The position numbers were made by a program, and so were the translations under genes. Source: Gammaproteobacteria bacterium (lineage in GTDB: Bacteria > Pseudomonadota > Gammaproteobacteria > Eutrophobiales > Eutrophobiaceae). Taken from it: 64,000 nucleotides of DNA. How positions within the stretch are numbered: position 1 is the first letter of the stretch; each line of letters opens with the position of its first letter. The notes below the pieces were generated by a model. That model saw only the letters and a program-made list of their open reading frames with translations. It was not told the DNA's origin and made no database searches. The stretch spans positions 704,001 to 768,000 of the forward strand of contig CAXMWX010000005.1 of the NCBI GenBank assembly GCA_963422205.2. Direction: 5' to 3'. Positions 1-21,803 of this stretch are shown here, piece by piece.

Positions 1-516
1 GGCGGCCAGATGCTTGATGGTATCCCCCGGCCTGATCTTGACCCGGCACTGGGCCAGCACCGGCCCGGTATCATAATCCTTATCCACCAGATGCACAGTC
101 GCCCCGGTCTCCCGCTCCCCTGCTGCCAGCACCGCCTGATGGACTTTTTTGCCATACATCCCCCGCCCACCATAGGCTGGCAACAATGACGGATGGATAT
201 TCACTATCCTGTGCTGATAAGTACGCACCAGGCCGGGCCCGAGTTTTCTCATAAACCCGGCCAGGATGACCAGATCAACGCCATGTTCATCCAACACTCG
301 CAAGCTGGCCTGTTCCAACGCGGCGGCCTCTGGGTGCGTAACACGGCTGAGGTGGTAAGCGGGAATACCGCTCTCCCTGGCATATTGCAGGGCGCCCGAT
401 TCGGGGTTGTTACTGATCACAAGCACCGGTTCGGCGGCGATCCTGTGCGCTCGGCAGGCGGCGATGATCGCCTGCATGTTCGAGCCGTTATGCGATGCAA
501 AAAATCCCAGCTTCAT
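1..516 (-). CDS. purN: Phosphoribosylglycinamide formyltransferase PurN (3' end runs off the window)
   Basis: Not in the ORF track. Manual translation from the ATG at 516 gives MKLGFFASHNGSNMQAII...VISNNP...DLVILAGFMRKL...IVNIHPSLLPAYGGRGMYG...HQAVL...ETGATVHLVDKDYDTGPVLAQ. These are the PurN GSN, NIHPSLLP and G-x-TVH...D-x-GP motifs. The start overlaps the pdxB stop (ATGA, 513-516). Confidence 0.95.
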   Translation of the reverse strand, partial: MKLGFFASHNGSNMQAIIAACRAHRIAAEPVLVISNNPESGALQYARESGIPAYHLSRVTHPEAAALEQASLRVLDEHGVDLVILAGFMRKLGPGLVRTYQHRIVNIHPSLLPAYGGRGMYGKKVHQAVLAAGERETGATVHLVDKDYDTGPVLAQCRVKIRPGDTIKHLAA

Positions 517-1664
517 ATTATGCTAACCTGAAAGCCCAGGGCACACAGCGTATCCTGCAAGCGATCAGCCTCGCCTGACAACGCCACCTGCCGGTGTGCA
601 AAACCGTAACGGGGCGGGTAGTTCGCCCGCAGCGCATCAAACAAATCACCGGGGGATGGTGCTGGCAATTCAATCAGACGATGCAAGGCAGCGCTGTCGA
701 CACGCACATCATAGCTGCTTAACACGGCCTTTTTGATCAGCGTCAGGTCGGTCTTGGCCGTATCAGCGGCCAGCTTTACCTCTGCCAGCGCCGGGATTGG
801 CAACTCAGGCAAGCGAGGCGGCCTTGGCCGCCCCATACATGCCAGCAACTGATCATATACCATGCAGGTGGCTCGCCGCCGGGCATCCAGGCTGTAGCCG
901 GCGATATGCGGGGTCGCAATACTCGCCCGCTCAAGCAGGGCGGTATTGATATGCGGTTCATTCGTCCAGACATCCAGCACCACCTGCATCCGGGGCCTTT
1001 GTGCCAGAGAATCCATCAGCGCCTGCTCGTCTATCACCTCGCCGCGGGCGGTGTTAATCAGGATCACAGCGTCTTTCAGCTGCTGCAAAAATGCCGCATC
1101 AACCAGGTGGCGCGTCGGGTAGGGGCCGGTATCTGTCAAGGGGACATGGAGGCTGATAACATCAGAGCGCATTATCTCTTCTATCTCCCGAAATGGATAA
1201 CCACCGGCAGCATCCAGGATAAAAGGATCGTACACATGAACCGATAAGCCCAAGGCCCGTAACTGCCCTGCCAGCGATGAGCCGACATGCCCGTAACCGA
1301 TGATGCCAATCTGCCAGCCGTTCATATCCAGGGCAGCCTGCTCATCAAGACCAAAAAGACTGCTGAGTACATATTCACACACTGCTGGTGCATTGCAGCC
1401 CGGGGCATGGAAAAAACGGATATCCGAGTCTTGCAAATACGCCAGATCAACATGATCAACACCGCTGCTGGTGCTGGCCACATAGCGCACCGGGGTGCCG
1501 GTCAGCAAGGCACGATCCACAGTCGTCACCGTCCTGACCAGCAACACCTCGGCATCGTGCAACACAGACGGCGTTATCTCCCGGCCGGGGACAAGCTCAA
1601 TCTCACCCAGATCAGCAAACACCGCCAAGACATGGGGAATAGCCGCATCGGCGATGATCTTCAT
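513..1664 (-). CDS. pdxB: 4-phosphoerythronate dehydrogenase PdxB
   Basis: 383-aa ORF: MKIIADAAIP, LLVRTVT, APGCNAPAVCEYV, GIIGYGHVG (NAD-binding), LHVPL, INTARGEVID, LDVWTNEP, TPHIAGYS, and a C-terminal YD...FDALRANYPPR segment typical of PdxB. Confidence 0.93.
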   Translation of the reverse strand: MKIIADAAIPHVLAVFADLGEIELVPGREITPSVLHDAEVLLVRTVTTVDRALLTGTPVRYVASTSSGVDHVDLAYLQDSDIRFFHAPGCNAPAVCEYVLSSLFGLDEQAALDMNGWQIGIIGYGHVGSSLAGQLRALGLSVHVYDPFILDAAGGYPFREIEEIMRSDVISLHVPLTDTGPYPTRHLVDAAFLQQLKDAVILINTARGEVIDEQALMDSLAQRPRMQVVLDVWTNEPHINTALLERASIATPHIAGYSLDARRRATCMVYDQLLACMGRPRPPRLPELPIPALAEVKLAADTAKTDLTLIKKAVLSSYDVRVDSAALHRLIELPAPSPGDLFDALRANYPPRYGFAHRQVALSGEADRLQDTLCALGFQVSII

Positions 1665-1774
1665 GCATCAAGATGAAGTAAAAACCCCGACCGTATGCCC
1701 GCATTGCATGGCTGTCGATAAGGATGATGCGGCAAAAGACAAACCGTTCGATATAATGATCACACCGGCGCTGT

Positions 1775-2731
1775 TCAGCGGGCGGCTTCCCGTCCCAGCC
1801 CTTCTTTCTCTACTGGCATCAAATCCTGCTTGCTGATCCCTAAGGCCAGCGTGATTGGGCTGGCAACATAAATGGAAGAGTACGTGCCAATAATCACGCC
1901 GACGATAAGCGCAATGGAGAAAGAATGAATGACCTCGCCGCCATAGAAGAACAGAGCCGACAAAACCAGCAAAGTAGTCAGCGAGGTGATCAAGGTGCGG
2001 CTGAGTGTCTGGTTGAGCGATGTATTGATGATATCGGTGGCAGTACCGGTTCGCATGCGCCTGAAATTCTCCCGGATGCGATCAAACACGACAATGGTAT
2101 CGTTCAGCGAATACCCAATCACGGCCAGGAGGGCGGCCAGCACCGACAGATCAAAATCAAGCTGTGTTAAGGAGAAAAATCCCAGCGTGATCAACACATC
2201 ATGCACCAAGGCGGCAATCGCACCGAGCGAGAACAAACGCTGGAAACGCAAGGCGACATAGATAAAAATACCAAACAGCGCAAAGATCATGGCCAAGCCA
2301 CCATCATTGGTCAACTCATCCCCCACCTGCGGCCCGACAAACTCCACCCGCCGCACCACCACCTCAGGATCCGTGGTACGCAACAGATTGATGATATCCT
2401 CGCTGATATCAGCGGTATTTTTCTGCTCCCTGGGCGCCAATCTGATCAACACATCCCGGGTGGTGCCGAAATACTGGACGATGGCATCGCCGTATTCAGA
2501 ACCGGCCAGCGTCGTTCGGATGGCATCCAGCTCGGCCGTTGCACCATAACCGACTTCAACCAGCGTGCCGCCGGTGAAATCGATCCCCAGATTCAACTGA
2601 CGCAGGGTCAATGATGAGATCGCTACCAGCAACAAGAGGGCTGAAAAGACGGCGGCCAGCTTGCGCCCGGCCATGAAGTCAAAGCGTATTCGAACAGCGG
2701 GTTCTTGCAGTGTATTCATCCGGGTGTTCAT
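1775..2731 (-). CDS. secF: Protein translocase subunit SecF
   Basis: LNLGIDFTGG, VEFVGPQVGDEL, HDVLITLG, IGYSLNDTIVVFDRIREN, GTYSSIYVASP; several hydrophobic helices; 9 bp downstream of secD. An alternative ATG lies at 2719. Confidence 0.97.
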   Translation of the reverse strand: MNTRMNTLQEPAVRIRFDFMAGRKLAAVFSALLLLVAISSLTLRQLNLGIDFTGGTLVEVGYGATAELDAIRTTLAGSEYGDAIVQYFGTTRDVLIRLAPREQKNTADISEDIINLLRTTDPEVVVRRVEFVGPQVGDELTNDGGLAMIFALFGIFIYVALRFQRLFSLGAIAALVHDVLITLGFFSLTQLDFDLSVLAALLAVIGYSLNDTIVVFDRIRENFRRMRTGTATDIINTSLNQTLSRTLITSLTTLLVLSALFFYGGEVIHSFSIALIVGVIIGTYSSIYVASPITLALGISKQDLMPVEKEGLGREAAR

Positions 2732-2740
2732 CTAACCTGG

Positions 2741-4117
2741 CTAGATCGACAGCCGGTCAAGTTTTCTGCCGCCATAGATGAGGTTGATGATCGCCCGGGT
2801 CACCATGATGGCGGTGAACATGGAGCAGACAATGCCGAGAGACAAGGTCACGGCAAAGCCCTTGATCGGGCCGGTGCCGAGGCCGAACAACACCAGGGCA
2901 GCGATCAAGGTGGTAATGTTGGCATCGGCAATGGTCGACAGCGCCTTCTCATAGCCAGCATGGATACTGGCCTGGGGCGAGTTGCCGTTGTTGATCTCCT
3001 CACGAATTCGCTGAAAGATCAGCACATTGGCATCCACCGCCATGCCGACTGTCAAGACAATGCCAGCGATGCCGGGCAATGTCAGGGTGGTGGGCAGTAT
3101 TGAGAGCAGCGCCACGATGAACACCAGATTCAAGCTCAGCGCCAGGTTGGCCGCCAGGCCGAAGACCCTGTACCAGAGCAGCATGAAGATCAACACCAGG
3201 ATAAAACCAATCTGCACTGACAGCTTGCCCTTGTTGATATTGTCCTGCCCCAGGCTGGGGCCGACAGTGCGCTCCTCAATGATATAAACCGGTGCCTTCA
3301 GGGCGCCGGCGCGAAGCAACAAGGCGAGATTATTGGCCTCTTGCGAGGAGTCCAAGCCGGTTATCTGGAAGCGGGCGCCGAGTTGCTCCCGGATCGTTGC
3401 CTGATTGATCACCTCTTCAGTGACGACTTTACGCTGCACCAGCTCGCCATCCTGCTCAATCATCTCCAGCTTGTTCTCAATAAAGACCACGGCCATGAGT
3501 TTGCCCACCTCATCAATGGTCTTGTCGGCAAATATTTTTGCCCCCTTGCCATCGAGACTGATGCTCACATTGGGGCTGCCGGATGCCTGATCAAACCCGG
3601 CCCCGGCCTGGGTGATATAATCGCCGGTCAACATGATCTCTTTTTTCAGCAGCACGGGATTGCCCAGCCGGTCCCGGTACAACCTGGCACCGGCCGGCAG
3701 CCGGCCGTCCACCGCATCTGCCGGGTCATGTTCCTGATCGGTCATGCGAAATTCCAGTGTGGCTGTTGCCCCCAGAATGACCTTCGCCCGTGCGGTGTCC
3801 TGCACACCGGGCAACTGCACAACGATACGATCCGTCCCCTGCTGCTGAATGATCGGCTCGGCAACACCAAGCTCATTGACGCGCTTTTTCAAGACCACAA
3901 TATTCTGTTTTAATGCCTCACGCTGTATCTCGTTCAGCGACTGCTCCCTGATCTCTACCTGCAACTGATGTTCATCAGCGGCGGCATCCAACTCGGTCAA
4001 TACCAGTTCGGGATAATCATCTTGTATCTTCTCGATACCGGCGCGCAAATGCCCATCATCACGAAAGCGTATCAACAGGCCGCCATCCCGGTTGCGGGTG
4101 ACTGTGCGGTAACGAAT
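2741..4117 (-). CDS. secD: Protein translocase subunit SecD, 5'-truncated (about 458 C-terminal residues)
   Basis: RVNELGVAEPIIQQQGTDRIVVQLPGVQD, ALLLRAGAL, EERTVGPSLG, TLPGIAGIVLTVGMAVDANVLI, GTGPIKGFA. The frame stays open upstream of the track start as IRYRTVTRNRDGGLLIRFRD, then meets TAG at 4120-4118, where AT-rich DNA begins. The N-terminal membrane helix region is missing. Confidence 0.96.
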   Translation of the reverse strand: MRYRTVTRNRDGGLLIRFRDDGHLRAGIEKIQDDYPELVLTELDAAADEHQLQVEIREQSLNEIQREALKQNIVVLKKRVNELGVAEPIIQQQGTDRIVVQLPGVQDTARAKVILGATATLEFRMTDQEHDPADAVDGRLPAGARLYRDRLGNPVLLKKEIMLTGDYITQAGAGFDQASGSPNVSISLDGKGAKIFADKTIDEVGKLMAVVFIENKLEMIEQDGELVQRKVVTEEVINQATIREQLGARFQITGLDSSQEANNLALLLRAGALKAPVYIIEERTVGPSLGQDNINKGKLSVQIGFILVLIFMLLWYRVFGLAANLALSLNLVFIVALLSILPTTLTLPGIAGIVLTVGMAVDANVLIFQRIREEINNGNSPQASIHAGYEKALSTIADANITTLIAALVLFGLGTGPIKGFAVTLSLGIVCSMFTAIMVTRAIINLIYGGRKLDRLSI

Positions 4118-4121
4118 CTAT
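4118..4121. other. Bacterial / eukaryotic sequence junction
   Basis: Abrupt switch from GC-rich, fully coding DNA to AT-rich repeat- and intron-containing DNA at the point where the secD frame breaks. There is no N gap. Confidence 0.92.
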
Positions 4122-5203
4122 TTTTAGTTGGTTGTCAGCAGTTTAATGATCTCAACTGCTTGAACTCTTTTCGTTATTGATGACGGTTTCTACAGAATGA
4201 TTTATTTTTGGCATTAACGCCACAGCACCTCACACAATGCAGTAATTTCGACCTGTTTAAGGAGTGACGACTTGATCTTTCTTTTGTTTGTTTTTGCTTT
4301 TTTTTCACTAATTGGATTTTATAACATTGAGTGTCTACTAGAAGAGGAAAGAGGAAGAAAGTAAGCTACAAATAACCTAAAAAGACACTCTCCTCATACA
4401 AAGGAAAATTAGGAGAATAAACTGCGAAAGAAGGACGATAAAATTACCCAGTATGATTTACTTCAGGTGCCGAATTTGTTGCTGTGGAATGTGATTTGAA
4501 TAGATTGGGTTCCTTTCTCAACGACTCATGCGTAAAACAAAATGCGGTAAATAACGCACAATTACGACGGCGTTAAATTCTTTAATTACTACAATATTTT
4601 TGTTTCATCGATCAACTCACATGGGTCTATACCAAGCCTACAAACCAGTTTATGTGATTGAATCGTTTTTGTCATTACATTTGCGCACACTTGGGAATGC
4701 ATCTGTATTTTAAATGTCCGTAATCACGGGATTATTGAAATACTGGACTAGTGTAATATGTTTCAATAATTTTACGTTTGGAGTTACAAAATATGCAATA
4801 GTATATCGACATAAAAAATTATACGATGTTGAAATCACTGAATATTCAAAAGCAAAATTAGCAACACGTAGAAGCTCCATTTGATTATTTCTTTGCTGAA
4901 CGTAATGTTAAGTTCTCACAAAATAGGATGAGTCTGTGTGTAGGCCTAGGCGTCTAGTCTAGTAGTGCAAAGATATAAAACAACCCAGAACCGAAAATGA
5001 ACGCAATAGTTGAGGTATAACTCCCAATGAAACCCAAATACCTAAAATTTAGGCTGGAATGGAAGAAATTCTTCAAATTTAACCTTCCAACTCAAGAAAA
5101 CTCTTGAAACCGCCTAAAATGAAAAACGCGATTGAATCTATTAGAAAAGCCAAGTGAGACCTACCGCTTTGAATCACTGCACAACATCCAGTCATAGCGA
5201 AAT

Positions 5204-5772
5204 CAGGGTTGCCAGGCCAGTTGCGCAAAAAATGCCAAACAGCGTATAAAAATATGCCAAACGGAACCAAAATATGCCAAACAACCTTCAACAAGCGCAA
5301 ATCCTCTGATAACCTAACGCAATACTTTTTACACAAAAGGCCACATATGAAAAAATGGGTCGCACAGATTGGAAGAGCAAAAGAAAGGGTCTTCACATCC
5401 GCAGATGTCCTATTTTTTCCACTAAAAATCGGTGAAGAGCAAAAAAAGAAAAAGTCTACGGCTTGATTCACAACTGGAGTTTATATTTCTGTAAGTGCCC
5501 GCGAGCCGCATAAAATGGTTTCGCGGGCTGCAATTTTCCCACCACTGACCTAAGCAAAGACGGGTCATCCTATTTTTAGGATTTTGCGGACGCAGTTGCC
5601 AAATACAAAAAAAATGCCAAGCACTGTTGAAAAAAATGTCAAATTCATAAAAAATGCCAAAAATATGCCAAACTATGACCAATATGCCAAACAAAAATTT
5701 TCGTGCCAAACCACTTTAAAAAATGCCAAATTTTTGGAATTTGGCATAAAAAATGCCAAACTGGCAACTGTG
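5204..5772. mobile_element. Non-autonomous hAT-type MITE
   Basis: Ends CAGGGTTGCCAG / CTGGCAACTGTG; perfect 8-bp TSD AGCGAAAT (5196-5203, 5773-5780); repeated subterminal ATGCCAAA motifs. Confidence 0.85.
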
Positions 5773-6458
5773 AGCGAAATAACAAGGCTTCTTAATACAG
5801 TAGGGGAGAACCTCCGACATTGGGACAATTTTTCTATGGGACGCTTTGTACTAGGTCTACACGCTTCACTGATCACGCGAGAATTGATTGCGTAATTTCT
5901 GTTCCTTCGCCTTACTGTTTCAGTGAATTACACGAAGTTATAGGGTCTTGTGAGCAGAAATGGCTGATTTAGCAAGGAAAGTTTATTTTTGGGGGATCAA
6001 AGTAAATATTTTATCGTATTTTGTTTTAAAATAGTCTTCAGCGATATTGATTCACAAGGCTGGCACGATGTCAGGTAACAGCAGGGAACTTGAAGCTAGA
6101 ATCGAGATAAAAAGCGAGTGCCTACTGTGCACTCAGGTGAAATCAGCAGCGATTTTTTAAAAATGACGGTCATATCAAACATTGGGACAAATGCATGTCT
6201 TCATCAATAGGGCGCTGTCCCATTGTTGGAGTGCATGTATATAGGTGCAACTTTTGTTTACATTCTTACTTTTCACGCTAAACTGTCACTGTTGTTATTT
6301 CCATGATTTTGCTTGTTGATTTCAATGGAATCTGAACTTCAACCAACATTCTCCCGAGGCTCGCGTGAAAAGGGGAAAACTGATCCCACTACCATGAGAG
6401 CAGCAATTGAAAAAGCATTGCTAACGGGGAAGATCAGGCCAATAATTGCAAGAGAGTA

Positions 6459-7647
6459 GGGGAGAGTGGGGTTGGTTGAATCGGGGGTTGGTTGAATTAG
6501 TAAACCCTATTCCGAGACTGAAGTCACAAGTCCTGACCTGTCTACATATTTTTGCTTTGCCAGAAGTAGTCTTCGTGCATACTGAATGAAGGATGGATTG
6601 AGCAAGGCTACGTATGCCTTTTTTCGGTAGGTGCGTAAAAACATCTAAAAGTAACTTTTGATATTTCCGCAATTTTTCATTTTCTGCTTGTAAAGTCAAA
6701 ATAATTCTTGCAACTAAGGATTTTATTTACAGAACATAACGTAGGCTACTAACAGGACCAATATGGTTTTAACTTGATAAAAACTTTCTTAGGCTAGATT
6801 TTAGCTAAAATATTAAAGCATGGCGCCTTGGGGTTGGTAGCATCAGATGATTCAACCAACCCCAATAGGGAACTTTGCTAACAGCTTGACTAAGCAACAA
6901 GTTTTAATACTGCAACTAGAACTTTTCAAAAGGCTTACTGGTAGTTGAACTATAACGGGTGTTTATGAAAGATTAGTTGAATAAGATAATCATGGTGAGA
7001 AATTGGAAAGCCAAGACAAATCAAAGGAAGGATGCGGATGTAGTTAAGCGGGCTGCGCGTGAGGTTCTGGAGAATAAAATGCCAGTTCGTGGGGCAGCAA
7101 AGTTTTGGAGTTTCCTGCTACGCAATGAACCGATTCATACATGGCATTAAAGCTCGAAGATTGGTTAAAAAGTGCAATAGTTGGGCCCATGAATTATGCA
7201 CCGACAGAGGCTAATTTATCTGCACCTCTTAAATGGTCATAAGCGCCAACTTAGAGTAGAATGTTTATCATGTAGTGTGCGCTACAAACACTGACTTTTC
7301 GTTGTGTGCGCTATTTATCGTGTTCGTTGCTGTTAGTTAATGTGTTGAGCATAATACAATGAACTAAAAAATAAAACAAATATTTGGTAATTGAAAGAAA
7401 TTGCAAATCGAAAGTGATTTAACCAACCCCATCGTACGATTCAACCAACCCCGTGTGGGCAAAAAATACCACCTCTAGGAAAATGCGTTTGAATCACTCA
7501 ATAAAAACTAATAACCACCAAAAAAGTATTTCATATTAAAGAGAGACGCCCTGATTTGATTTGATTAATTTTTACTGATAACGGATCTTCGCAGCAGCCG
7601 CAAGTGAAGAAAAACTGCAAGTTGAGTCAACCAACCCCACTCTCCCC
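6459..7647 (+). mobile_element. Internally deleted pogo-like element nested in the previous one
   Basis: TIRs GGGGAGAGTGGGGTTGGTTGA / TCAACCAACCCCACTCTCCCC with TA TSD. Relic MVRNWKAKTNQRKDADVVKRAAREVLENKMPVRGAAK from 6992 resembles a pipsqueak-type HTH at the start of a transposase. Confidence 0.75.
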
Positions 7648-8204
7648 TATAATGTTGCTAGACAAACTTTGAAAAACTGGATAGATACTATTATAACTGG
7701 ATGTTGTAGACTCTTTCATTGGGTATCGTTGTTTGGGGCCAGTCGCCTGCTAAAAATAGGGCACAACCTAGAAAAGAGATGAAGTCGAGATGTCCAGGTA
7801 AAGCAATGCAAAAAAGAGTCTTTACAGTCTGGAATGAGTTTAGCCTGGATTGGCCGTGCGTAGCAAGGCTGATGAGACTTTCGTTATAGTGGATAGATAC
7901 TGTTGTGACAAAAAGGCACAGGCACATGGAACCCAAGACAACCTACTGAACGAACCAAATTATGCAGTTCGTGTTTTGTTTGCCAGCGCTGTTCTGTCAA
8001 GAACTTTTAAGAAATGAACTCTCTAAATTACATTCAATGTTTTGGGCTATATTAACTTTGCTTTAATGCTGATGCTAATTCTTTTCTGTTGTTTTTCAAC
8101 TTTGTTTTTAAAACACTACACGACATGCAGTAGCCTAATATCTCGTTATAGCTATGGTGATCTGGCGCGTCCGTAAATTTTTTGATTTGCAACCGTAAAA
8201 AAAT

Positions 8205-8400
8205 TTTATCTTCATTATACTTGCGGTAATACGCCGAAGCGTCTAACGAGTGGCGGGGCCCATTTCCACGGCTTCGCGCCTGGGCAACATAGCTCCGAAG
8301 AAACGTCGCAACAGTGGCGAGCCGTTGGCGACACTGTGCTGATTTGACCGGCCCGGGAATCGAACTTCATACCTTCCGAACCGATAGCGTACGCTTTGCA
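8205..8400 (-). mobile_element. tRNA-derived SINE, family B copy
   Basis: Shares the B-box-like GTTCGATTCCCGGGCCGGTCAAATC and body CACAGTGTCGCCAACGGCTCGCCAC...GGGCCCCGCCACTCG...TAATGAAGAT with copies near 16960, 17180, 28895, 29150, 50255, 50815, 57330 and 59302. Confidence 0.8.
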
Positions 8401-8439
8401 TCCGCAGCTTGGTATAATCATTATACCAGTAGCTCTAAG

Positions 8440-8608
8440 CAGGGGCGTCGCCAGCTCATCGGGATCGAGGAAGAGGGAAAAGTCAACTGTAGAGGGGCCA
8501 GGGACCTTGTTTCAGTCTATTTTTTTTTAATTCCTTTTTCGATCAGGGGGGAAAGCTGCCAATTTGGAGACCGAGCCCCCTTGGCCTTCCCGCTGACAAC
8601 GTGCCTGA
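8440..8608. mobile_element. Short hAT-type MITE
   Basis: CAGGGGCGTCGCCAG / CTGACAACGTGCCTG ends; imperfect TSD GCTCTAAG / ACTCTAAA. Confidence 0.6.
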
Positions 8609-11600
8609 CTCTAAAGTGTTGCAAACGTTACGTAATACATTGAAACGTTAAAAGGAAGTTCAACTGAAGACTGTGGTGTTTTAATTTTGATAATCGATGT
8701 TCAAAGTTTTCTATTTCGTTATATTGTTAATTGAATTTCATTTTATGTCTGACTCTTTCAAGTACAAGACAGATCGTTAGCCGGTGGGGGCATGACACTA
8801 CAGTAAGCATCTCTGTCTGCGTCACCAATTGCTTTAAATACCTAGTTATCTTGTTTGATGGCGAAAAAGACCTTTACAATACGCCAAAGGTTTGTTTCGA
8901 TCTACATTGCCTGTTTGTGCCGTTCCAAACTTCATGTCCCATTAATAAAACTGCATTGTCCCGTTGCATGAACCACTTCCACCAGTGGGACAATTTTAAA
9001 CCTCTCAGAAAAATGATCACCTGTTTTAACTCAGCGTAGATAGAGAAATCCAACCAAGTGCTATTTGAAGAGTACATCAATGACCATGGTTGCATCTAAA
9101 AAAAACGCTGACTTGCCGTAATCTTCACTCACAAATGACCAAAATGTAAAAATTGTCCCAATGATGGAGGTTCTCTTCTACAGTATTTGAAATGAAATAT
9201 GATGTAGCTTCACGGAGCAACGGCGATTTAGCTTTTTGGAACAAATTGGCGTAGGAAACTTTTTCAAAAATAAAAAAGTTTTTCATTACCATAGTAGGCC
9301 TACTAGGTATTATTAAAAAAAAGTTTTCAGTAAAGACTATTTATTGCCGAGATTTATGAAGTCCAACGAAGATTGAGTTCATCGAGGGTGATGGTGGTGT
9401 GGTCTTTTCGAATGTAAGTTGTTTTGATGAAAATTATAGCCGTTGCTTTCGGGCTTGTTTTTTGTGGCTGAATACTGAGGTAAACCTTCGTTCAGAAATG
9501 TGACTTGAACTGGTAGAGCTGACTGTCTGCAACGAAACAACATCCATTTGAAGCTGCGGTAATTTCAATATGTCTGTGAGCAAAAGCCGTGAACAAGCCT
9601 ATTGCACGCAAATAACTTGAGATGCTGTAGGCCTTGCCTCAATTTATTGTTTCTAAGGGAAAAGAAGGCCGTACAATGATACTGTGCGTTAGTTTCTGCC
9701 CAAAGTAAATGCAAGAAGTGACTCGCCATCGCCGCAGCGTTCTTATACAATGGTGTTGTTTCGCGGAGGTGGACAATTGGGCACCGCTTATTGCTCGTCT
9801 CAGGGTAAAACAAAACCATAAAGAAAATGAAAGAATGAATATTTTAATCAGAAAAAACTTCAAATTTTTGCATAAAAAAACATTTATAGCCCTATCGTTC
9901 AGATCAACTTTTAATATAAAATTTTAAAAAACCTCCACAGCCTGTTTCTCGCTAAGCGCGGTCCTCAGGAGGTATCTTATTCAAATAGAATTGAGCTCTC
10001 TGCTGTTCGTACCACAGATCGCCGATACAGTTTATAACACTAGATATTCACCATTCAGTTCAAGCTTTACGGTATATCAATAGCTTACATAATCGACTTA
10101 GAATACTCACTCACCGGCAAGCGCATCCCATTCTGGTATTTTCAATTTTAGTACAGGTAATACCAGCTCTTCTGTCATTTCTGACTATTGCTCGCCCAAG
10201 CGTGTTCCCTTGTAATTCTGGAGGAGCAGCTGCATTTGCAAGAAAAAATTTTGTACCACGAGTGCCATTTTTGAAATTATTTTTGCAAGTAGCCTAAACC
10301 TAATTGCTTCATGTCGTTGACGTATTGCAAACTTCACCAGTTCCTCAATAGCATTATTTTCATAACACGGCTGCCACGTTATTAATAAAGTGACAAGTGA
10401 TATATTTTGAGTTTACAATCCTATGATGAAACCGTCTTAGTTCTGCACTTATGATCATTTGGTGTGTGAATTTATTGCAACACGTGACGAGAGATATTTA
10501 GAATATGCAGAACTTTCGTTGTTTATCGCAGGTTTTGATTAGAATTGTTTGATATGCTGAAACCATTCTCGAACTTTCTAGAACAGTGGTTCTTAAACCG
10601 GGTTTGATCGAACCCCCGGGGTTCGATGAGTCGGTTCCAGGGGGTCGGCGGACATAAAAAAACTGAAGGCTCCTACCATTACGTAGAAAAACGCAGCGTG
10701 ATCTGATTTTTTTATTTTGCAAAAAACTAATGTGTAGTCTTTGGTGATTATTGATTTGTAACATCAATTAACACAAGTAAGTTTTTCATAACTTGGCAAA
10801 TTCTGCGTTTTACACAACCTTGGGTGTGCACTGCGCAACTACAAAATAAGTACTATTATTACGTAACTTGATTGAAGAAACAATGAATGTGAATTTATCC
10901 AAGGAGCGGCAAGCAGTCCTAGCACTCTGTGTTGGGTATTGTGTTAGTAATGTCGGAGCACATTCTCTACTTTTTATGTTTGGAGGTTATGCAGTAGTTT
11001 GTCGTTCGCGTCAGTTGAAGTTCAGAACAAGAGCGCGCACTTTATCGAGATAAATTAATCATAAATAAGGCTAATAGCCTAGTACTGTTTATATTTTACT
11101 TGAACTGTAACCCTTTTGTTAAGAGACTGCAGTTGGTAGATTTTAATTAGAAAACTTTAGGTAAGCAACCGCAACAGGGGCGGATTAAGAGATTGCGGGG
11201 CCCGGGGCAGATAAGAGTGCGAGGCCCCTAATTATGAACGGCGAAACCAACTAATGTCCTTTTGGATATTAAAGTTTATTGACATCACAATCAACCAGCA
11301 ATTTTATTAAGTTTATCAAACTCAGGTTTGGGTCGTGCTAAAAATATATTAATGTTGACAACAAATTTTCATTTTGACTATGAATGTAGATCAAAGAGGT
11401 TGAGTCCAATTTGCTGCATTGACATATTAAAAAAAGTTAAATGTTTTAATTTTGTTAAAAATTCACTTTCAAAAAAGGCCAAGCATGGAACAAAATTTTC
11501 GCACTGTTTCAAAGGCGAAGATATACAACACCAAAAAACAAAATAATAAACAACATAGAGAGTGCTATACGCTAAGGCTAGTTGCTGTGCTGGCTTCTTC

Positions 11601-11931
11601 GGTTTGATTATCATAGCTCAAAGATTGAATGGATGTAGAATCAGCTAACTGCTCGTTTGCATTGGAAAAGAGGCGACTTATTGCCTTCAACTTGCCTTCA
11701 ACTTCTCTTAATTTTACCTCTCTTTCCTCTGTTTTTACGTGTTTGACTTCCACTCTCATACTTTTGACCCAAGTCACGAATTCTTCCAGTCGTGAGCACT
11801 TTTATAAGAAACACTCTGCAGTGGTCACGGAAGCTCAACTATCTTAATTTTCAAATAGGCCTATTGCTATAATTATGAGTACCGATAAGTTTCTGTAATT
11901 CCAAAATTTGCCTAACTTTGGGCTAAGTTTA

Positions 11932-12240
11932 ACAGCTCAGATGGCCAAGTGGTTAGAGCGTTTGCCTCGGGAGCTGTAGCTTTGGGTTCGATTCCAATTC
12001 GGGTCAAACCAATGACTTTAAACTTTAAAATTGGTATTCACAGCTTCTCTGCTTGACGCTCAGCATGAAAGGGACAGTGTGGAAAACAGGTTGGCAAGTT
12101 TACTTGTTGTGCCGTTGGGAAGGGCACTTAGCGGGATTCCCCCATCTTAGTGTGGTAGGCAGAGGCTGGCAACTCCTAAGCGAGCTCGTTATTGCGCATT
12201 GATCGCTTTCGCGTGATAGGAGGATGAATATGCAACTAAA
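11932..12240 (+). mobile_element. tRNA-derived SINE, family A, near full length
   Basis: A box TGGCCAAGTGG, B box GGTTCGATTCC, body AAATTGGTATTCACAGCTTC..TGCTTGACG and tail ATATGCAACTAAA. Related copies near 18300, 19630, 28110, 38890, 59685 and 61657. Confidence 0.85.
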
Positions 12241-12707
12241 TTCGAAGTACAAAAGTGCGAAGATCCGACACCCCGAAGCCTTTAAAGTTATTACGTTGTG
12301 ATAAAAGTATTTTACTTACGGCTTTAAGGCATTAACGTCGTGACTTCAAAAAAACTTACGACTTCAATGCATTTTCGTTGTACTAATACGTAAAAGTGCA
12401 ACTATGAACCGGCCTTAATTTTCTGGTATCATGCATTATCGCCTGCTATAGCTCATTAAGTTTCCAGCGAATTGAGATACAGCTTGTAATGAAATAGGCA
12501 AATAGCTTATAAATTTATTGAATATTTTTGAACAACTTGTAAATTTAAGCAAATTTAAATTTGTCTGCAATCTGCACGCTTCTAAATATAGGCCAGAAGG
12601 CCAAAGCGTTTTTAAAAATTTGACGGTCGATTGCAGCCTTTAATGTAAATGCAATTATACCAGTCACTTTGTACTGTGACATTACAGTTACCTTGCAATA
12701 TTGCGAG

Positions 12708-13313
12708 CAAGGGTGGAAACTCAAATCTAAACCTCAAAACCGGGTTTTAAAGAAACCAAAACTGAAACTGACTCCTACTTGGCCAAATTTTTGAAAACCT
12801 AAACTTGAACTTAAACCGTTTTTTCTCGAAACGTCAAAACCGAAACTGAAACTAAAATTTGTTCAAAAATTTCTAAGGTTTTGGGTTTTAAAAGTTGTCA
12901 CCACCATCATTACCAGTAGAGTTCCTTTAATGCTAAGCGTCAAATAGAGAAGCTGTGCATACCAATTTTTGAGTCTTTGGTTTCACCGGACTCGGAGGTA
13001 CACCCAAGTCAACAATTTCTGAAGCACTTGCTCTCCTCACTCGGCCATCTGAGCTGCCACTTATCATCGCAATAAAACAAAAACGCCAAGAAGTAGCGCA
13101 TTTAAATAACCCGTATTCAAAATAAAATAGATTTATTGGATGAAACTTAGACCGAAACTGAAACCCAGAAACCGAAGCTGTGCGTATGCAAAACTGAAAC
13201 CTAATTTTTAGCAGTCGTGAAACCAAACCAAAACTGAAACTGGACATATGGGCTTTAACACATCGACACTGAAACTGACACCCTAACGCCAAGTAGCTAG
13301 GTTTCCACCCTTG
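12708..13313. mobile_element. hAT-type MITE nested in 11175-13553
   Basis: CAAGGGTGGAAAC / GTTTCCACCCTTG ends; TSD ATTGCGAG / ATTGCAAG; repeated AAACTGAAAC motifs. Confidence 0.8.
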
Positions 13314-13768
13314 ATTGCAAGCCTGTTCTAATTTTTTTTTTTTTTTTATTCCAATTATTGCCGTATCGGTAGGTAAATATTTTGATTTTTTAGTTCAAAG
13401 TTTGCTAGTAATGCAGATTATAAGGTTGTAAAATCTTATACCTTAGTTTAATGCAATTGCTAATAGAGCTAGAAATTAGTAAATGCGCGGGCTACCCCAA
13501 AGTGCGGGACCCGGGGCAACTGCCTAGTTTGCCCATTGCTTAATCCGGCCCTGAACCGCTATTACAGGCGCTAATGTACAATTTTCTTCGTTTGATTTAG
13601 ATTTAATTTATTTTAGATATTAATCATTTCTACAGCATTTTCATTCTTTCGTACTAGGCTACTATCTACTGTATGTCGAGCAAAAGAAGAAAGTGGTCAG
13701 AAGAATATGTACAATTTGGATTAACGTATTTCACGGACCATGATTGGAGTCAGCGTTATCAGTGCATG

Positions 13769-15474
13769 CAGTGGCGCCGCCGGGAAAAAACATTGGGGGG
13801 CGAAATGACGTCATAATTTGTGATTTTTGCAGAGCTACACGAAAACATGAATAAGACGATAAGACGCATTAGCTTTCCGTAGGTGCAGTTTAATCGGCAT
13901 TCTTAAAGTAGGCTATTGCACTTCTTACTGTAATTTTTTTTATTCCGAAATTTTTCATCAAACCAACGTACTAACTTTTGCAACCTTTGTGACAAAAGTG
14001 ACCAAAATTGCAAAAACTGCTAGATTTCCTGATACCTGAAGTATGCAAAGCTCTATTATGATGTCACAGTTAGGCTAAATTTTCTCGAATTTTAACAGAA
14101 ATTTAGGGCAAATAACAGCGAAACATCAAAATAGAATTACAGTAGCTAGCTTACCCTAAGATCAGTACAAATTTTAAAAAAGGAGGGGCATAATTTCCAC
14201 ATTTTTTCAGGCGTATTTTTTTCGGCGTAACAATTTAAAGTTGATTGAGAAACAAAAAAAGCTTTAAGGTTGTCCGGGGAATGTTCCCCTGGAAGAATTC
14301 GGAAAATTTGCATGCTGCGAATGGCTGTTTTAGCGCTTTTCGAATAATTTTCGGGCAAATTTTATTTGAATTTTTGACCCTAATCTGAGTGCTTCGCAAA
14401 TTACTATTCTAAGCGAGCTCGTACTTTCTTAAGCAAGCTCGTACAGCGCATTGATCGCTTTCTCGTGATAGGAAGATAAATAATATGCAACTAAATACAA
14501 TTACATTCGATACAACAGCTGGAAAAAATACACGGTGTCCATAAAGTCTTGTTGCAATTTAAAAGAAATTTCTCTTTGTTTTGAATGCCAGAGCAGAGTT
14601 CGTGGACTGTTCTCTTTTTTTTTTTTTGAAAAATATAGCAAAACATTTTTGCAATTTGACTCACAAAAAACATCGTCAAGCACAATGAAAACTCACCGCA
14701 ACATTTATTGAAAAAAATTATTGGCGATGATTTATCGATCACCGATATCGCTCAAAAAAATTGACATTTATCGATTATCGGCATCGCTTAAGGTTTTTTG
14801 AAATTATCAATTATCGTTATCGCTTTACTACAGAAAGGTTTATCATGCCCATCACTGATAGTGGTTGTGGGTCTGCAATCTGCATGCTTCAACGGTTAAA
14901 TATTTTGTTGCGCCTTCCTTTTTCTGTAAGCCTACCAGCTTTTCATCCTTTGCTTACGTCTGAGTATGTTCTGCGCAGAAATAAACAACAACAAAAATAT
15001 TGCTGAAGCGCAGTAAATTACATTCTGCTTTGGATTGCCAATCAATCTATGTATAATGAATACTTGCTAAAACTTAAAAGATTTCTGATTCTGAAAAGCC
15101 TTCACTTGCCCGCTGCTGCTTTAAATATCTCAAAACGTTACACTAGCTTCGTGAAATTACAGTACGTCAAGCCAGGTATGACTTCACAAAGTATTGAAAT
15201 ATCTAAGGTGGCTTTTATGATACAACAGCTGGTCATTGATATGAATTGCAACCATTGTCTTTTACAGTAAGCAGCGATTGCTTCTGTTACATGCGTTTGC
15301 AAATTGCGAAATTAGGAATGTCGACGAATATTAGAACACGAGATGGAGCAAAACAGCTCCCCATATCCCTTGAAAAAGAAACTGTGCGGTTCTAGACGAT
15401 TTGGAAAAATGGTCAAAAAACCATTGAAGGGGTGGTCGCCCCCTCTCGTCCCCCCCTCCGTGGCGGCGCCCCTG
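13769..15474. mobile_element. Non-autonomous hAT element inserted into the Buster transposase relic
   Basis: Ends CAGTGGCGCCGCC / GGCGGCGCCCCTG; perfect TSD AGTGCATG (13761-13768, 15475-15482). Interior about 13960-14495 is homologous to about 35160-35710. Confidence 0.88.
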
Positions 15475-16959
15475 AGTGCATGGTTTGCCAAGCCAGATTA
15501 AACAGCTCTAGCTTAGCACCGGCAAAACTCAAAGAACACATGCTAAAGATGCATGGGAATGGAAAATACAAGAACACAGCGCTAGCTGAATTTATAACAA
15601 AGATAGCCAAATTTCATGAAAAACCTACAGTACTCTGCCTGCTTGCGGTTTTGTACCCATTGACAAGCCGATTCTCACAGCATCGTACGAAGTGGCGTAC
15701 CTGATTGCGAAGCAGGGTAAACCACACACTATTGTGTGTGAGATCCACATTTCACTTTGTGCTCTACTCGTTACAAAACATTTTTTTAATTTTAATTTTA
15801 GCAGGGCTTCGGTGAGCACCTGCATGAAGCTTGAGGGGTTGGGTAGCTTAAAAAGTTTAAGAACCACTGTTCTAAAAACTTTGTACCTTGAGCATTTTTT
15901 CATCTTGTCTATGCGTTATAATAGACGTTTTGCAATCTATGGTGTTATTTATTATTACAGAAACGTCTACTATTGTGTCGTAATTACGTAACAATGTGGT
16001 ACTATCTGGAATTTTTTGGAATCGTAAATTTTCTATAAATAGGAGCGGAAATTCGTGATTGTATTCAGAAGAGTTTTAGACGTGTTTGGAATAAGTCTGT
16101 GTTGCTGCTTTTCGTATAGTAATTTTGAGTGAGTGTTAGCGGAGATTCCAGATTGATTTGCATTGCTCTGGGAGGAATACTTTTTGAGTCACTTAATATA
16201 TAATTTCGTTATACGTTAAGGGTGGTTTGTTTCTTTTTTTGAAAGTGGTAGATGCAAGGTTTCCAAAGAACATTGGATATAATACTGATACTCTCACGTC
16301 GTTCTCTGGGATAGATAACGTTTCCGTTCTCAGAGTTAAAGGTTGAATCTTTAGCCAAGTTTCAATATTGCGACAATGGCCTTATAATTCAATCGTGCTG
16401 AAGCACTGTCGGAAAAATTGCGAAAATTGCGAAATGAGCTTAAGCTCTTCATTGCAACAACCACCAAAAATATGCAGCCCAAATAGATGAACCACCAACA
16501 ATATGATAGCCTAAATATGTGCCAATGCGATGGGCTGCTGCCATGAATCGAACACATACCGCACGACTTTTAACGCGCGGCATTGCTGGCTCGTTTCAGT
16601 GTAGCATCCACCTGACACAATATTTAGAACGTAGAAAAGCTACAGTAATAGCGATAGACTGCTCGGCAGTAGAACGCTGGTTCTGTAATTAACGGACGTG
16701 GAAATCAACCGTTAATGTCCTGCAAAATATGCATTCAAGTACAGAATTAAACATACTTTAATGAGCAGTGAGAAGTGTACAAGTCTCTGTACTAACTGGT
16801 ATGGACTATAAAATTTTAGAAACACATCAGCGAAATACGTGATTTTTGATTCATAAATCTCACAATAGCAGCATTTTGAGATGATTTGTTACGATTTGTT
16901 AACACTTCTTCATATTGGGTCTACTATGTTTTTCATTTTGTCAATACATGCTTGCCCTC

Positions 16960-17325
16960 AAATCAAAAATCAAATCTTCATTATACTCTCGTTGATACGC
17001 CGAAGCGTGTTACGAGTGGCGGGGCCCATCTTCGCGACTAAGCGCCTGGGCTACACAGCTCCGAAGAAACGTTGCAGCGGTGGCGAGCTGTTGGCGACAC
17101 TGTGCCAATTTGATGGACCCGGTAATCAAACCCCAGGCCTCTCGCACCGCTAGCGTGTGCGCTTGGCAATTGAGCTAATCGACACAGTGTCCTCAACAGC
17201 TCCCCACCGCGTTGCGACGTTTCTTCGGAGCTGTGTTGTCCAGGCGCTAAGCCGCGGAAATGGGCCCCGCCACTCGATACACTCTTTGGCGCAATACCGC
17301 GAGTATACTGAAGATTTGATTTTGA
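16960..17325. mobile_element. Two family B SINE copies head-to-head, forming an inverted repeat
   Basis: About 16960-17175 on minus and 17180-17325 on plus. The tails AAATCAAATCTTCATTATACTC and GAGTATACTGAAGATTTGATTTT point outward. Confidence 0.8.
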
Positions 17326-17327
17326 TG

Positions 17328-17500
17328 CTTACCCTGTCCACATGCCCAATTTTAGCGGGCAAAAAGCATAGGCTTCTGCATCATAATCAAGGTTTTTAAG
17401 TCATACATGAAAAAAGGGATTATGACATCAAAAATTTAATTATGACGCAGAAAGCCCCTGGGCTTTTGCTCCGCCAACATTTGACATGTGGACAGGGTAA
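17328..17500. mobile_element. Short palindromic MITE
   Basis: TTACCCTGTCCACATG ... CATGTGGACAGGGTAA with a partly self-complementary interior. Related sequence near 41075-41240. Confidence 0.65.
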
Positions 17501-18294
17501 ATAACAACCCACTTTTATGCCTATGAAGGCCTACCTGTTTCTTTATCTTTTTTGCAGCACATTTTTCCCTGATTGCAACATCCGATAACACAAAACAGCA
17601 TAATGAGTCCTCCGATTGAAAGAACAATTGGAATAACAGTTGCATCTAAAATAGTAAAAAGTGAAAATAATGTTTTTTTAATACCTGAAAACGTTGTTTG
17701 AGCAAGCTTTTTTTGCAAATTAGACAACTGCTGCTTTACAAAACTGCTTTTTTAGAATCGCGTAAGTATCCGAAAAATTAATTTTGGCACATCGTGGGCT
17801 TGGCGCATGATCTTTTTTACTGTGTGCATATAATTATCTCGATTGAGCTTAATTTTTTCTTATCATTTCCGTAATTTTCCATATTTTTGGTGGTTTCAAA
17901 TCCTAGTCTTGATCTTTCGAGTTTGCAACCTTAACCTTTGTGCTTCCTCGCTCGTAATGTTAAATTCTTTGTGTCAGCAGCCTCATGTTGCTTAAGTTGT
18001 TATTTTTATTTTGCTGTGAGTTACGTAAACATCATTTCAGTTTATAAGTTTGAAACAGGCAGCTATTTGAACTTCAAATTTAGCGTTTCGCCATGCCAGA
18101 AAAAAGAATACGCAGCGCAATTTTGCCTCCCCTCCAAAAAAATGCGTGACTGCTAGCACGAATTGGACGATTATTATTGCAATTATTATTAAGAAATTTT
18201 ACGGCGCTTTATAACTGAGGATGTTTTTTATAAAGAAAATTAATTTTTAACGCAACAAGAGGGATAGCAATCACAATTAGGTATAATTCTGGAG

Positions 18295-18555
18295 GAACTG
18301 AGCGTTCGCCTTTCGAGCTGTAGACGTGGGTTTGATGTCGGATCAAACCAGTGACTTTAAAATTGGTATTTACAGCTTCCCTGCTTGACGTTCAGCATTA
18401 AAGGGGCAATGTGGAGAACAAACCGACAACTTTACTTGTAGTGCCGTAAGGAAAGGCGCTTAGCGGAATTACACCATCTTGGTGTGGCAAGCATGCGGGT
18501 GGCCGGCAACTCCTATATGCGAGCTCGTTATACTGCTTTGATTGCTTTCTGGTCA
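18295..18555 (+). mobile_element. SINE family A copy
   Basis: GAGCTGTAGAC...CAAACCAGTGACTTTAAAATTGGTATTTACAGCTTCCCTGCTTGACG...GCGAGCTCGTTAT matches 11932-12240. Confidence 0.8.
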
Positions 18556-19626
18556 TGGGAAAACGAACACGCAACCAAATAGGCCTACAAATTCTTTATT
18601 TGTCTTTGTTGAATTTGTAGTGATAATACAGACAACTGCAGCCATTGCAATTGAGAAGATTACAACTGTTTCGAAAAATCTCATCAGTGCAGCACGACAG
18701 GAATCAAAAAGAGGGACGACCGATTAAAACTGTCTGCTTAATGCCACAAACTACGCTATGTTAACAAGGCAGCATTGAAGGCATGAAGTGATTTACATCA
18801 CCACACAAGATGACATCGTGGTCACAATAAGATATCTTGAATCTCTGAGAACCATAGAAACAACTTATTCTGGCTTGTGTTGAAGATATATGGTCTTCAA
18901 CTTCAAAATTTCGGAAAATCAGTTCGATCTAATGGCCGATGGTCAAACTTAGCGAAAATAAATTTCTCCACAGTGAAATAACAGCTTTACGCCATGAAAA
19001 CCCTTCTGACCCAACCTATAGCTATTCTCCCTACCAGTTTCTGCACTGTAGCTAACCCGTTTTGTTAAATTTATGTGTGTGGCGATTACGTGTTCGTTGT
19101 TCGTTACTGGACGTCGTGCAATCTATTTCCTATACGAAATCTGACTGATTCTCAACATGTTTCATAGATAGTGTAATTTTTTATCTTTTCCCCAATTCTT
19201 TCACACGTTTTCCATTATTTTTTTTATCATCTCCTCCTCCGTCCTGGAACGGGCAGGTTTTCGAAAATGGAAGGTGTGATTTCCAGCAATAATATTCAAC
19301 GTGGCCATGCTTGTATTTGCTTTTTTTGCACTCATTTAAATTCGCGTGCTTGCTAAAAATCTCTCTCTCTCTTCTGGCTCTTACATCGGTGTGCCACCTT
19401 GAGATCGAGACTGCAGTACCGTGCTGCAACAAAAAACATCCTGAACTCCAACATGTTCAAAGTTGTTTAAATGAGAATAAAAATGCGAATACTGTGTGCA
19501 ATGTCGCAAACAAAAAAATAAAGATAAATTGTGGTAACTATGTGTTTGTGTAAACTTCTTTTGATCGCAGCCGAACCCCTGCTACAGCCTCACCGAACCC
19601 CTATAGGGTTTGATCGAACATACTTT

Positions 19627-19770
19627 ACAAACCACTGCTTTAATGCTTAATCTCAAGCAGGGAAGCTGTTGATACCAATTTTAAATCATTGGTTTGACTC
19701 GAGTTGGAATCAAATTAGAGTTTACTGCTTTCGACTTAGACTGTCTATCCATTCGGCCATGCGAGCTGCA
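19627..19770 (-). mobile_element. SINE family A, 5' half
   Basis: Reverse complement gives CAGCTCGCATGGCCGAATGGATAGA...GAGTCAAACCAATGATTTAAAATTGGTATCAACAGCTTCCCTGCTTGA. Confidence 0.7.
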
Positions 19771-21803
19771 CATGAATGGCGAAGACTTCGAGGAAGTATA
19801 GCCGGTTCTGTATCAACAAAACGGTTTGGTATGAAGAAAGTTGATTATTCTAAGATAAAATCTGGTGGTAGTACACTTATTGTATAGTATTTTCCACTGA
19901 AGCAGTAGGCTGATAATTGAGCGCCCTTAGCAAAGCTTAATACGGGTATGTTGTGCTGCTTTTCGGCCTTGGTACCAGCGTTGGCATTGCTTTGTTTACG
20001 TGGCTGCTTTTTCATTCTTTTTTCTTTTCATTCCATCCTACAAGCTTTCGTTGAAATTAGAAAAGATGGCCCCGTAATTAAATTAGCCATGGCCCCACTC
20101 ACTGTTTGCTCGCTTTTGCTTGAACCTCGAACAGTTGACTTCTACAAACAAAACATTAAAAATGCAACAATAATTAGGCATTATCGTATACAACAGAAAA
20201 CAATTTTATTTTTACCATCTTTTTCCTCGTATTTATTTCCCAGGCAATGGGTTGCTGGAAGGATGGATGACAAAATGAAGAAGTTTATGCGTAAAAACAA
20301 TGAATACATAGCTTAGCGTTGATCCTGTGAATATTATTTTTTAACGTTCAAATGAAAGTATTGTACAACTTCAGTATAATACTGAAACTGAATGATCAAG
20401 CAGTCGAGGAGCCACTGGTTTCACGCTGCGTAAAACTATCATATTCAAACAGCAAATCCCTTTTTCAAATGAAATGATCGGCTGGCAAATATTTAAGTGC
20501 AAATAGCTTTGTAGGTCTTCAATAAATGGTTATTAAATTATCATTAGGTTTCCGGCGCTCTACAACTGAAAAAATACTTCATTAGGGTTTCCGACGGAGA
20601 GGAAATCTTGTTTGTACAGAGTAGCCTATAAATACTATACAACATAAGACCTCCGTAACTTAATTTATTGTGATGATAAGTTACCGAAAATTGTCTGTCT
20701 TCAGCCGTCAAGATTTTACATTGCACGCCCAAAGTCAATAAAGCTACCTTTGCACAATAATATTGTAACTTTTGACCACTACTCTGCGGAATTCATTGCG
20801 TGTCAAACCTCTCAACGCGACCGTTTGTGACACGATTTACGGGAAAGACGAAAATAATCGATGTTGCTATTCTCCAATTAGGTTTGAGTTTTCGTTATAT
20901 TACTCTATAAACTGCAAGTTGAAGCAAGGCTCAACCCCTATATTGAATAAGATAATCACCTGAGGAGCCGACAACGGTGAAACAGTGTGTAGTGTTTTTT
21001 TATGATTTTATGATTGAGTGGTTTTATAATTATTTCAAACTGCAATAAGTGCGTAATTTGAATCGAATGAGCAAGCCCTTGCATGTCTGCATTTACTACT
21101 GACTCATTTACAGTATTTCAAACGGAGTAGGATGCACGGTTGGAATCGCGCGCACAAACTCTTTCTGATCTCAAAAGAACAAAATTACCTAACATTGCAA
21201 TCACCACGCTGCACGGACATCTTTAAATTTTTATTACTGATATAGTGAAATGTATATAAATTTAAATCTGCACATGTGAATTGAATGCTTTTTGAATTCT
21301 GACAAACCCTTTTCTGTATTCGTAAAAATTCAATGCAAGACTTTTGCACAATGCCCAACAATTGCAAATTGTTGAAAGCTACGAACTGATTTCTCTGTAA
21401 AACTGATTTTATTGTTAACGCTTATTACTACAATTTCACAACTGCATTATTAACAGCATTGCTTTTCGACAAAGAGCTGTTTTCACAAGATGCTGTACGC
21501 AACCCTAAAAACGTTTCACTAAAATTGTTTTTCTCACTATACTTTGACCTACTAAACCTCTAATCCCTTGCGTGTCACTGGTGACCTGGCAAATTTCTTC
21601 CTTGCTCTAAGTCACGCCACACTTTCTGGGTCAAATATGATAAAGATATTTTTTAGTAGCAAGTGATGCCGTGAGGGATAAACTTACGTGTGCAAGGGCG
21701 AGTTTTATGACCATGTGTGACGTGTATACACAATGAAATGACGTAATTAACGTCCAGATTGTCTAGCTTCGACAGAAACTAGTTTACTGGTGAAATGATG
21801 AAT

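Follow-up and report, generated by a model that had tools for sequence, protein, structure and literature searches.

We examined a window of 64,000 nucleotides, corresponding to positions 704,001 to 768,000 of contig CAXMWX010000005.1 (here called C7) in a prokaryote assembly of 14 contigs with a total length of 2,988,056 nucleotides (2.99 Mb). The left end of the window contained four genes, purN, pdxB, secF, and secD, all on the minus strand, all encoded by frames without internal stops, and all in DNA with a guanine-plus-cytosine (GC) content of 0.55 to 0.60 up to about position 3900. From position 4200 onward the GC content was 0.34 to 0.40, and no N letters were present anywhere in the window. 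The two types of DNA meet at position 4119 (C7:708,119), at the edge of the secD frame, and it is this join that is analyzed here. We conclude, with a probability of roughly 95%, that the join represents a chimeric contig, which is to say an artefact of the assembly or of the library, rather than a biological structure or a gene transfer.

The secD gene in the window is a genuine secD gene that has been cut at its 5' end. The frame consists of 458 codons, as compared with 569 to 645 codons for the frames holding SecD in 12 relatives from the same family, and since the nearest full-length SecD proteins are 619 amino acids long, about 160 N-terminal residues are absent. The model for full-length SecD proteins, NF009545, was matched only over positions 163 to 596 of 604 with a score of 446 bits against a cut-off of 728 (in another search the match started at position 172), and the SecD protein in the window aligned with the frames of the relatives from their positions 166 to 173 onward. 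In the comparison with four relatives, the homology began precisely at the codon at 4117-4115, which is the first codon after a TAG, with the residues IRYRTVTRN in the window and V/IRYKTI(T/S) in the relatives. Upstream of the frame we identified TAG at 4118-4120 and TAA at 4124-4126, and the codon opposite the TAG encoded T, K, K, or Q in the four relatives.

An earlier note on this DNA had described four stop-free bacterial genes in GC-rich DNA, the last of which, secD, was said to run to position 4117 and to meet a TAG where AT-rich DNA begins. The open frames, the GC content and the matches to NCBIfam profiles all agree with this description, as does the location of the TAG. The note was also correct in that SecD has lost its N-terminal part, although the loss amounts to about 160 residues (458 versus 619 amino acids) instead of the approximately 150 residues proposed.

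To follow the two sides of the join in other data, we used two public sequencing runs, X1 and X2, which represent two samples of the same coded organism from one study and which each contained 82% of the sampled words of window positions 2118 to 6117. The run data consisted of contigs, which were placed on positions 1 to 9000 of the window. A bacterial contig of 86,498 nucleotides in X1 (depth 538) contained positions 1 to 4119 of the window with 0 differences at its own positions 49,665 to 53,783, and a bacterial contig of 52,042 nucleotides in X2 (depth 8.42, minus strand) contained the same positions at 32,716 to 36,834. Both of these contigs carried exactly 32,715 nucleotides past the break, none of which matched positions 4120 to 9000 of the window. 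The host side was located on a contig of 2,097 nucleotides in X1 (depth 41.1), where positions 4119 to 5254 of the window were found at 962 to 2097; the 961 nucleotides that lie leftward of the break on this contig do not match the window. The corresponding contig in X2 (2,099 nucleotides, depth 22) gave a match at its positions 1 to 1136 and had 963 non-matching nucleotides on the left side of the break. The host side in X2 showed 0 differences from the window and that in X1 showed two. Hence, in both samples, the breakpoint was crossed by the bacterial chromosome and, separately, by the host locus. We also noted that the bacterial contigs of X1 and X2 stop at the same point, 32,715 nucleotides beyond the break, where a repeat boundary is probable.

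At the level of contigs, none was found to bridge position 4119 in either of the two runs, and the depth in the junction bin was fully explained by the two contigs that do not bridge it. For the bin that covers positions 3901 to 4200, the depth calculated from the two contigs was 538 x 219/300 + 41.1 x 82/300 = 404 in X1 and 8.42 x 219/300 + 22 x 82/300 = 12.2 in X2, and the observed values were 403.9 and 12.2, respectively. Since the depth in this bin equals the sum of the two contigs, there is no further contig there, and none that bridges the join. Furthermore, the ratio of bacterial to host depth was 538:41.1 (13:1) in X1 and 8.42:22 (0.38:1) in X2, and this 34-fold shift could not occur if the bacterial DNA were a nuclear insert. 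The earlier note had named three signs that would speak against a real integration, and all of them were found in the run contigs: no contig spans the join, the depth changes in a step there (in opposite directions in the two runs), and the bacterial contig continues past the break. The uninterrupted host locus that was sought in the note was likewise recovered, in that the host contig continues for about 961 nucleotides past the break in both runs, and the reading preferred in the note, in which an associated bacterium and its host were linked by a chimeric read or contig, is thereby supported.

Wolbachia DNA in the chromosomes of insects and nematodes provides true examples of large insertions from bacteria into animals, and real insertions of this kind are backed by junction-spanning reads, polymerase chain reaction (PCR), inheritance, and host-level depth. 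As an alternative reading, the join in the window could mark one true junction of a large piece of a bacterial chromosome that was very recently inserted into the germline of an ascidian and its nuclear genome. As in the Wolbachia insertions, a long stretch of endosymbiont DNA lies beside host DNA without a gap; the join contains no N letters, host DNA follows for 128 kb on the contig, the intactness of the bacterial genes is what a very young insert would show, and a second host-like junction is located at approximately position 3064 of another contig in the assembly, C11. Unlike in the Wolbachia insertions, host and bacterial contigs cross the breakpoint separately in our data, and their depths are not linked. 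In both runs, the host contig extended across the breakpoint into sequence that is not bacterial, the bacterial contig extended across it for tens of kilobases, and the junction bin held no other contig. The bacterial depth was 13 times that of the host in one run and 0.38 times in the other, whereas a nuclear insert would be present at host depth. A germline insertion is also opposed by the finding that no other assembled copy exists of the 708 kb of bacterial DNA on C7, a quarter of the bacterial genome, and by the lack of host repeats in its bacterial part in the window. Taken together, we consider an insertion of this kind to be exceedingly improbable.

The organization of C7 as a whole points in the same direction as the run contigs. 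The contig is 836,315 nucleotides long and consists of 708,117 nucleotides with a GC content of about 55%, followed by 128,198 nucleotides with a GC content of about 37% that reach its end. In steps of 10 kb, the GC content was approximately 0.46 to 0.59 until 708 kb and 0.35 to 0.40 thereafter, and a GC scan of the whole assembly identified the AT-rich tail of C7 as its sole large AT-rich block. The assembly was scored as 97.97% complete and 0.12% contaminated, and because of these values the 708 kb on C7 is needed: it is the only assembled copy of this DNA and makes up a quarter of the bacterial genome. The earlier note had framed the DNA as an animal genome with a bacterial insert and had sought a second junction to the left of the first base. 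The record has turned out to be the reverse, a bacterial genome that carries host DNA. Leftward of the window, 704 kb of unbroken bacterial DNA extends to the start of C7, and the GC profile revealed no second host junction on that part of the contig.

A bacterial genomic island, prophage or plasmid that has inserted into secD and disrupted it could in principle account for the AT-rich DNA, since islands are often AT-rich and smaller intervals of low GC content are present elsewhere in the assembly. However, the AT-rich tail is a block of 128 kb in which frames of at least 150 codons (counted from stop to stop) cover a fraction of only 0.079, as compared with 0.909 for the preceding 128 kb of bacterial DNA. 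Intervals of 10 kb that were poorly covered by long open reading frames included all 25 on C7 from position 705,001 onward and four others on contigs C3, C5, and C13, and the tail of C7 was the only run of such intervals in the assembly. Depth bins on the host side reached 2x10^4 to 5x10^5 in the run contigs, and the repeats were present at 10^3 to 10^4 times the depth of the flanking host contig, while the depth of the block was not linked to that of the bacterium. In addition to the reverse-transcriptase fragment at the right end of the window (Table 1), a second fragment of this type was identified in the tail at C7:827,146-828,273 (PF00078, E 7.5e-24).

One gene in the AT-rich tail was found outside the window, at C7:783,226-785,547 on the plus strand. 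It is an uninterrupted frame of 774 codons (760 amino acids as called) for IFT80, with matches to the second beta-propeller domain (PF23335, E 6.6e-106) and to the IFT80/172 TPR domain (PF23387, E 4.5e-60). Its best named matches were all to ascidians, with 70% identity to Clavelina lepadiformis, 65% to Ciona intestinalis, 62% to Ciona savignyi, and 55% to Styela clava, and three further proteins matched the frame at 74% to 83%. Because the best named matches are ascidian, we conclude that the host is a tunicate. With a gene for a protein of 760 to 774 amino acids sharing 70% identity with one from an ascidian, together with the reverse-transcriptase fragments, the repeats, and the low coverage by long frames, an origin of the AT-rich DNA as a bacterial island is next to inconceivable. 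The earlier note had described the AT-rich side as DNA with introns, SINEs, and MITEs; the features observed here are the high-copy repeats, the reverse-transcriptase fragments and the low coverage by long open reading frames.

The sequence at the join itself was examined for traces of the process that created it. In the TAG at 4120-4118 on the minus strand, the host side contributes the T and the bacterial side the AG. The stop that closes the secD frame was most likely created by the join itself, because the K or Q found at this codon in relatives can be encoded by NAG. No transposon end, target duplication or microhomology was detected at the join, where only chance-sized repeats of 10 to 28 nucleotides with 71% to 100% identity were present. 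Likewise, no host repeat was found within the bacterial part of the window in the run contigs, the depth of which was even across the bins from position 1 to 3900 (538 in X1 and 8.42 in X2), save for a stray match of about 18 nucleotides in two bins. The earlier claims that the join has no N gap and no transposon end, and that the 4.1 kb of bacterial DNA contains no host repeat, are confirmed. One contig joint, from position 8336 to 2576, at a host-like depth (55.4 in X1 and 36.1 in X2), resembled a link between the host DNA and secF; it was rejected as a stray and short match of a repeat contig, because the extra depth in the bin from 2401 to 2700 (+3.3 and +2.2) corresponds to a match of only about 18 nucleotides.

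The first approximately 165 frame positions of SecD (about 160 residues) were not detected in the assembly, in that 0 of 4 N-terminal queries from relatives matched any of its 14 contigs. The yajC gene was also absent, with 0 matches at E <= 1 in a search that was positive in 13 of 14 control genomes. Since both the 5' part of secD and yajC are absent from all contigs, the assembly has a gap exactly at the site where the false join was made. In a relative from the same genus (G001) and in another relative (G008), the genes upstream of yajC-secD were queA, tgt, and a gene for a transporter. In the assembly studied here, queA, tgt, and a transporter frame of 515 codons were found at C12:35.7-39.5 kb, close to the right end of this contig of 41,005 nucleotides. 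The segment C12:35,600-41,005 contained no yajC, and after queA, tgt, and the transporter it held two paralogous frames for PAS/chemoreceptor-like proteins that run off the contig. This gene order suggests that the right end of C12 is the likely true neighbor of secD, on the other side of a gap that may have been caused by a repeat.

A second join of the same kind was identified on C11. The first approximately 3 kb of this contig (positions 1 to 3064) had a GC content of 29% to 48%, contained no frames of bacterial type and was AT-rich and host-like; it included an element of about 0.7 kb that was 84% to 86% identical to C7:810,033-810,988 in the host tail. The host-like segment gives way to bacterial DNA at approximately position 3064, within a gene of the PstS family that lacks its 3' end. 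The TIGR02136 profile was matched over positions 7 to 227 of 295, and the alignment with two relatives (321 and 329 amino acids as aligned) stopped after residue 241. That a join lies within each of two unrelated genes is in keeping with a technical cause.

We propose that the assembly was generated from host-associated material, and that 708 kb of a symbiont chromosome was wrongly linked to a 128-kb piece of ascidian nuclear DNA, either through one or a few chimeric long molecules in the library or through a wrong path taken by the assembler. A chimeric read would be the more probable source than an error in the assembly graph. In the living organisms, the remainder of secD would follow on the bacterial chromosome, and further host sequence would follow at the host locus. 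The position of the break inside secD would be a matter of chance. On this explanation, the flawless state of the bacterial genes reflects that they belong to a living bacterium.

Some points weigh against reading the join as a chimeric contig. The independence of X1 and X2 is limited, because both come from one study and X2, which is identical to the window on the host side, may be the sample from which the assembly was made. Contigs lose rare variants, and a junction present at low frequency would therefore be invisible in them. The placed pieces described individually are the longest ones, with 11,770 more placed on the window, and the statement that none bridges the join rests on the depth arithmetic for a single bin. 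That the 32.7-kb continuation of the bacterial contigs begins with the missing part of secD is an inference. The run contigs do not distinguish a library chimera from an assembler error. We also list here the search for a full-length SecD protein from the same species, which retrieved only the 444-amino acid product of the window itself at 100% identity, with the next best match at 76%, a neutral outcome as to the existence of the missing 5' part. Finally, the two host junctions might be taken for opposite ends of one insert. However, secD and pstS were separated by 236 to 390 kb in two near-complete relatives, and because of this distance, and because no such stretch is missing from a genome that is 97.97% complete, the two joins do not appear to fit the ends of one inserted segment.

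The loss of rare variants from contigs also leaves room for a real junction of low frequency, such as a rare or somatic integration, or an integration confined to a single colony, that was caught by a long read and falls below the level of the short-read contigs; the join at pstS on C11 would then be another event of this type. An opportunity is given, since the bacterium, which inhabits the host or its surface, reaches up to 13 times the host depth. Nothing positive was found in favor of such an event, however, and an overlap of one base without a target duplication or a repeat is what is expected from random ligation or from a read chimera. The second join of the same type in the assembly also fits a technical source better than it fits two rare biological events. 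We therefore rate a rare integration as very unlikely, and retain a chimeric contig as the explanation for the join.

The features of the window are listed in Table 1.

Table 1. Features identified in the 64,000-nucleotide window, with positions given relative to its first base.
Feature	Position	Strand	Remarks
purN, phosphoribosylglycinamide formyltransferase	1..516	-	TIGR00639, 159.1 bits against a cut-off of 150.1; first 172 codons, continues leftward outside the window
pdxB, 4-phosphoerythronate dehydrogenase	513..1664	-	383 amino acids, intact; NF001309, E 9.5e-113, profile positions 1-378 of 379
secF	1775..2731	-	318 amino acids, intact; TIGR00966, 316 bits, profile positions 1-278 of 279
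secD, C-terminal 458 codons	2741..4117	-	TIGR01129, 452 bits against a cut-off of 244.4
Breakpoint and TAG stop	4118..4120	-	Bacterial match ends at 4119 and host match begins at 4119; one base shared
Eukaryotic (tunicate-like) host DNA	4120..64000	.	GC content 0.34-0.43; continues to C7:836,315
High-copy host repeat	5401..5700	.	Summed contig depth 22,499 (X1) and 14,116 (X2); the single-copy host contig that flanks it has 41 and 22
Very high-copy host repeat block	7501..8400	.	Summed contig depth 281,299-475,359 in X1 and 166,123-295,137 in X2
Reverse-transcriptase fragment of a retroelement	63602..64000	-	PF00078 (RVT_1), E 3e-11, 43.8 bits; runs off the window

The bacterial frames were named by searches with NCBIfam profiles, among which PdxB obtained a score of 377 bits, under the curated cut-off of 434 bits for NF001309. 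In a search of genome contigs (genome_contigs), and among the best 80 loci, the best match to SecF had an identity of 72% and came from a gammaproteobacterial metagenome-assembled genome. The named relatives among these 80 loci were Thiogranum, Thiohalobacter, Ectothiorhodospiraceae, and Candidatus Thiodiazotropha, with 62% to 68% identity. The bacterium is a gammaproteobacterium without close named relatives, and these matches did not place it more closely.

Several additional observations were made on the host DNA and on the remainder of the assembly. The lack of introns in a cilium gene as large as that for IFT80 deserves mention; the gene may have arisen as a retrogene, or its structure may result from intron loss in tunicates. 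The repeat at 5401-5700 was adjoined by degenerate tandem arrays with units of 18 to 20 nucleotides. A tandem array with 3.6 copies of an 89-nucleotide unit at 99% identity was located at 21804-22125 and was followed by an array with two copies of a 48-nucleotide unit at 22142-22238. A tRNA-like match to RF00005 in Rfam was obtained on the plus strand at 61660-61731 (31.8 bits, with a gathering score of 29), and ARAGORN called no tRNA in the window. This match may represent a tRNA-derived repeat or a degenerate tRNA, and a tRNA-derived short interspersed nuclear element (SINE) was considered. Elsewhere in the assembly, at C3:550,001-565,000, long open reading frames covered a fraction of just 0.10 to 0.16 in two 10-kb intervals, which, unlike the host tail, were not flagged for low GC content.

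The situation described here resembles that of the tardigrade Hypsibius dujardini, in whose draft genome DNA from other organisms was reportedly taken for horizontal transfer (bioRxiv 10.1101/033464; PeerJ PMC4824900). There, too, intact bacterial genes are reported beside animal DNA in an assembly, with the matter settled by coverage and read linkage and the bacterial part acting as a separate organism. Our case differs in that animal DNA is found here in a bacterial record, and in that the two are physically joined in one contig rather than present on separate scaffolds. Chimerism and contamination in prokaryotic assemblies that are missed by marker-gene checks are the subject of the GUNC study, in which the homogeneity of the lineage of contigs is reported to be judged from their genes (Genome Biol 2021, PMC8201837); the foreign tail in our assembly, by contrast, is eukaryotic and poor in genes. 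The problem in our assembly is of the type that this study is reported to treat, with a contamination score of 0.12% and yet about 131 kb of foreign DNA (4.4%), made up of the 128,198 nucleotides on C7 and about 3 kb on C11. The host DNA is not counted in the contamination score because eukaryotic DNA carries no bacterial marker genes. The assembly belongs to those kept as one genome per species in the genome collection that was searched, and the 760-amino acid IFT80 protein called on the tail of C7 is already present in a public protein collection under this bacterial contig.

A rare integration, if it were true, would mean that there is an ongoing flow of DNA from a symbiont to its host in a tunicate. 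As it stands, the join does not amount to a biological finding, and the coverage, together with the continuity of the contigs on both sides, accounts for what, with its intact genes and its clean junction, looks like a transfer. The value of the result lies in the curation of databases, where records such as this one can give rise to mistaken claims of horizontal transfer and to wrong taxonomic labels.

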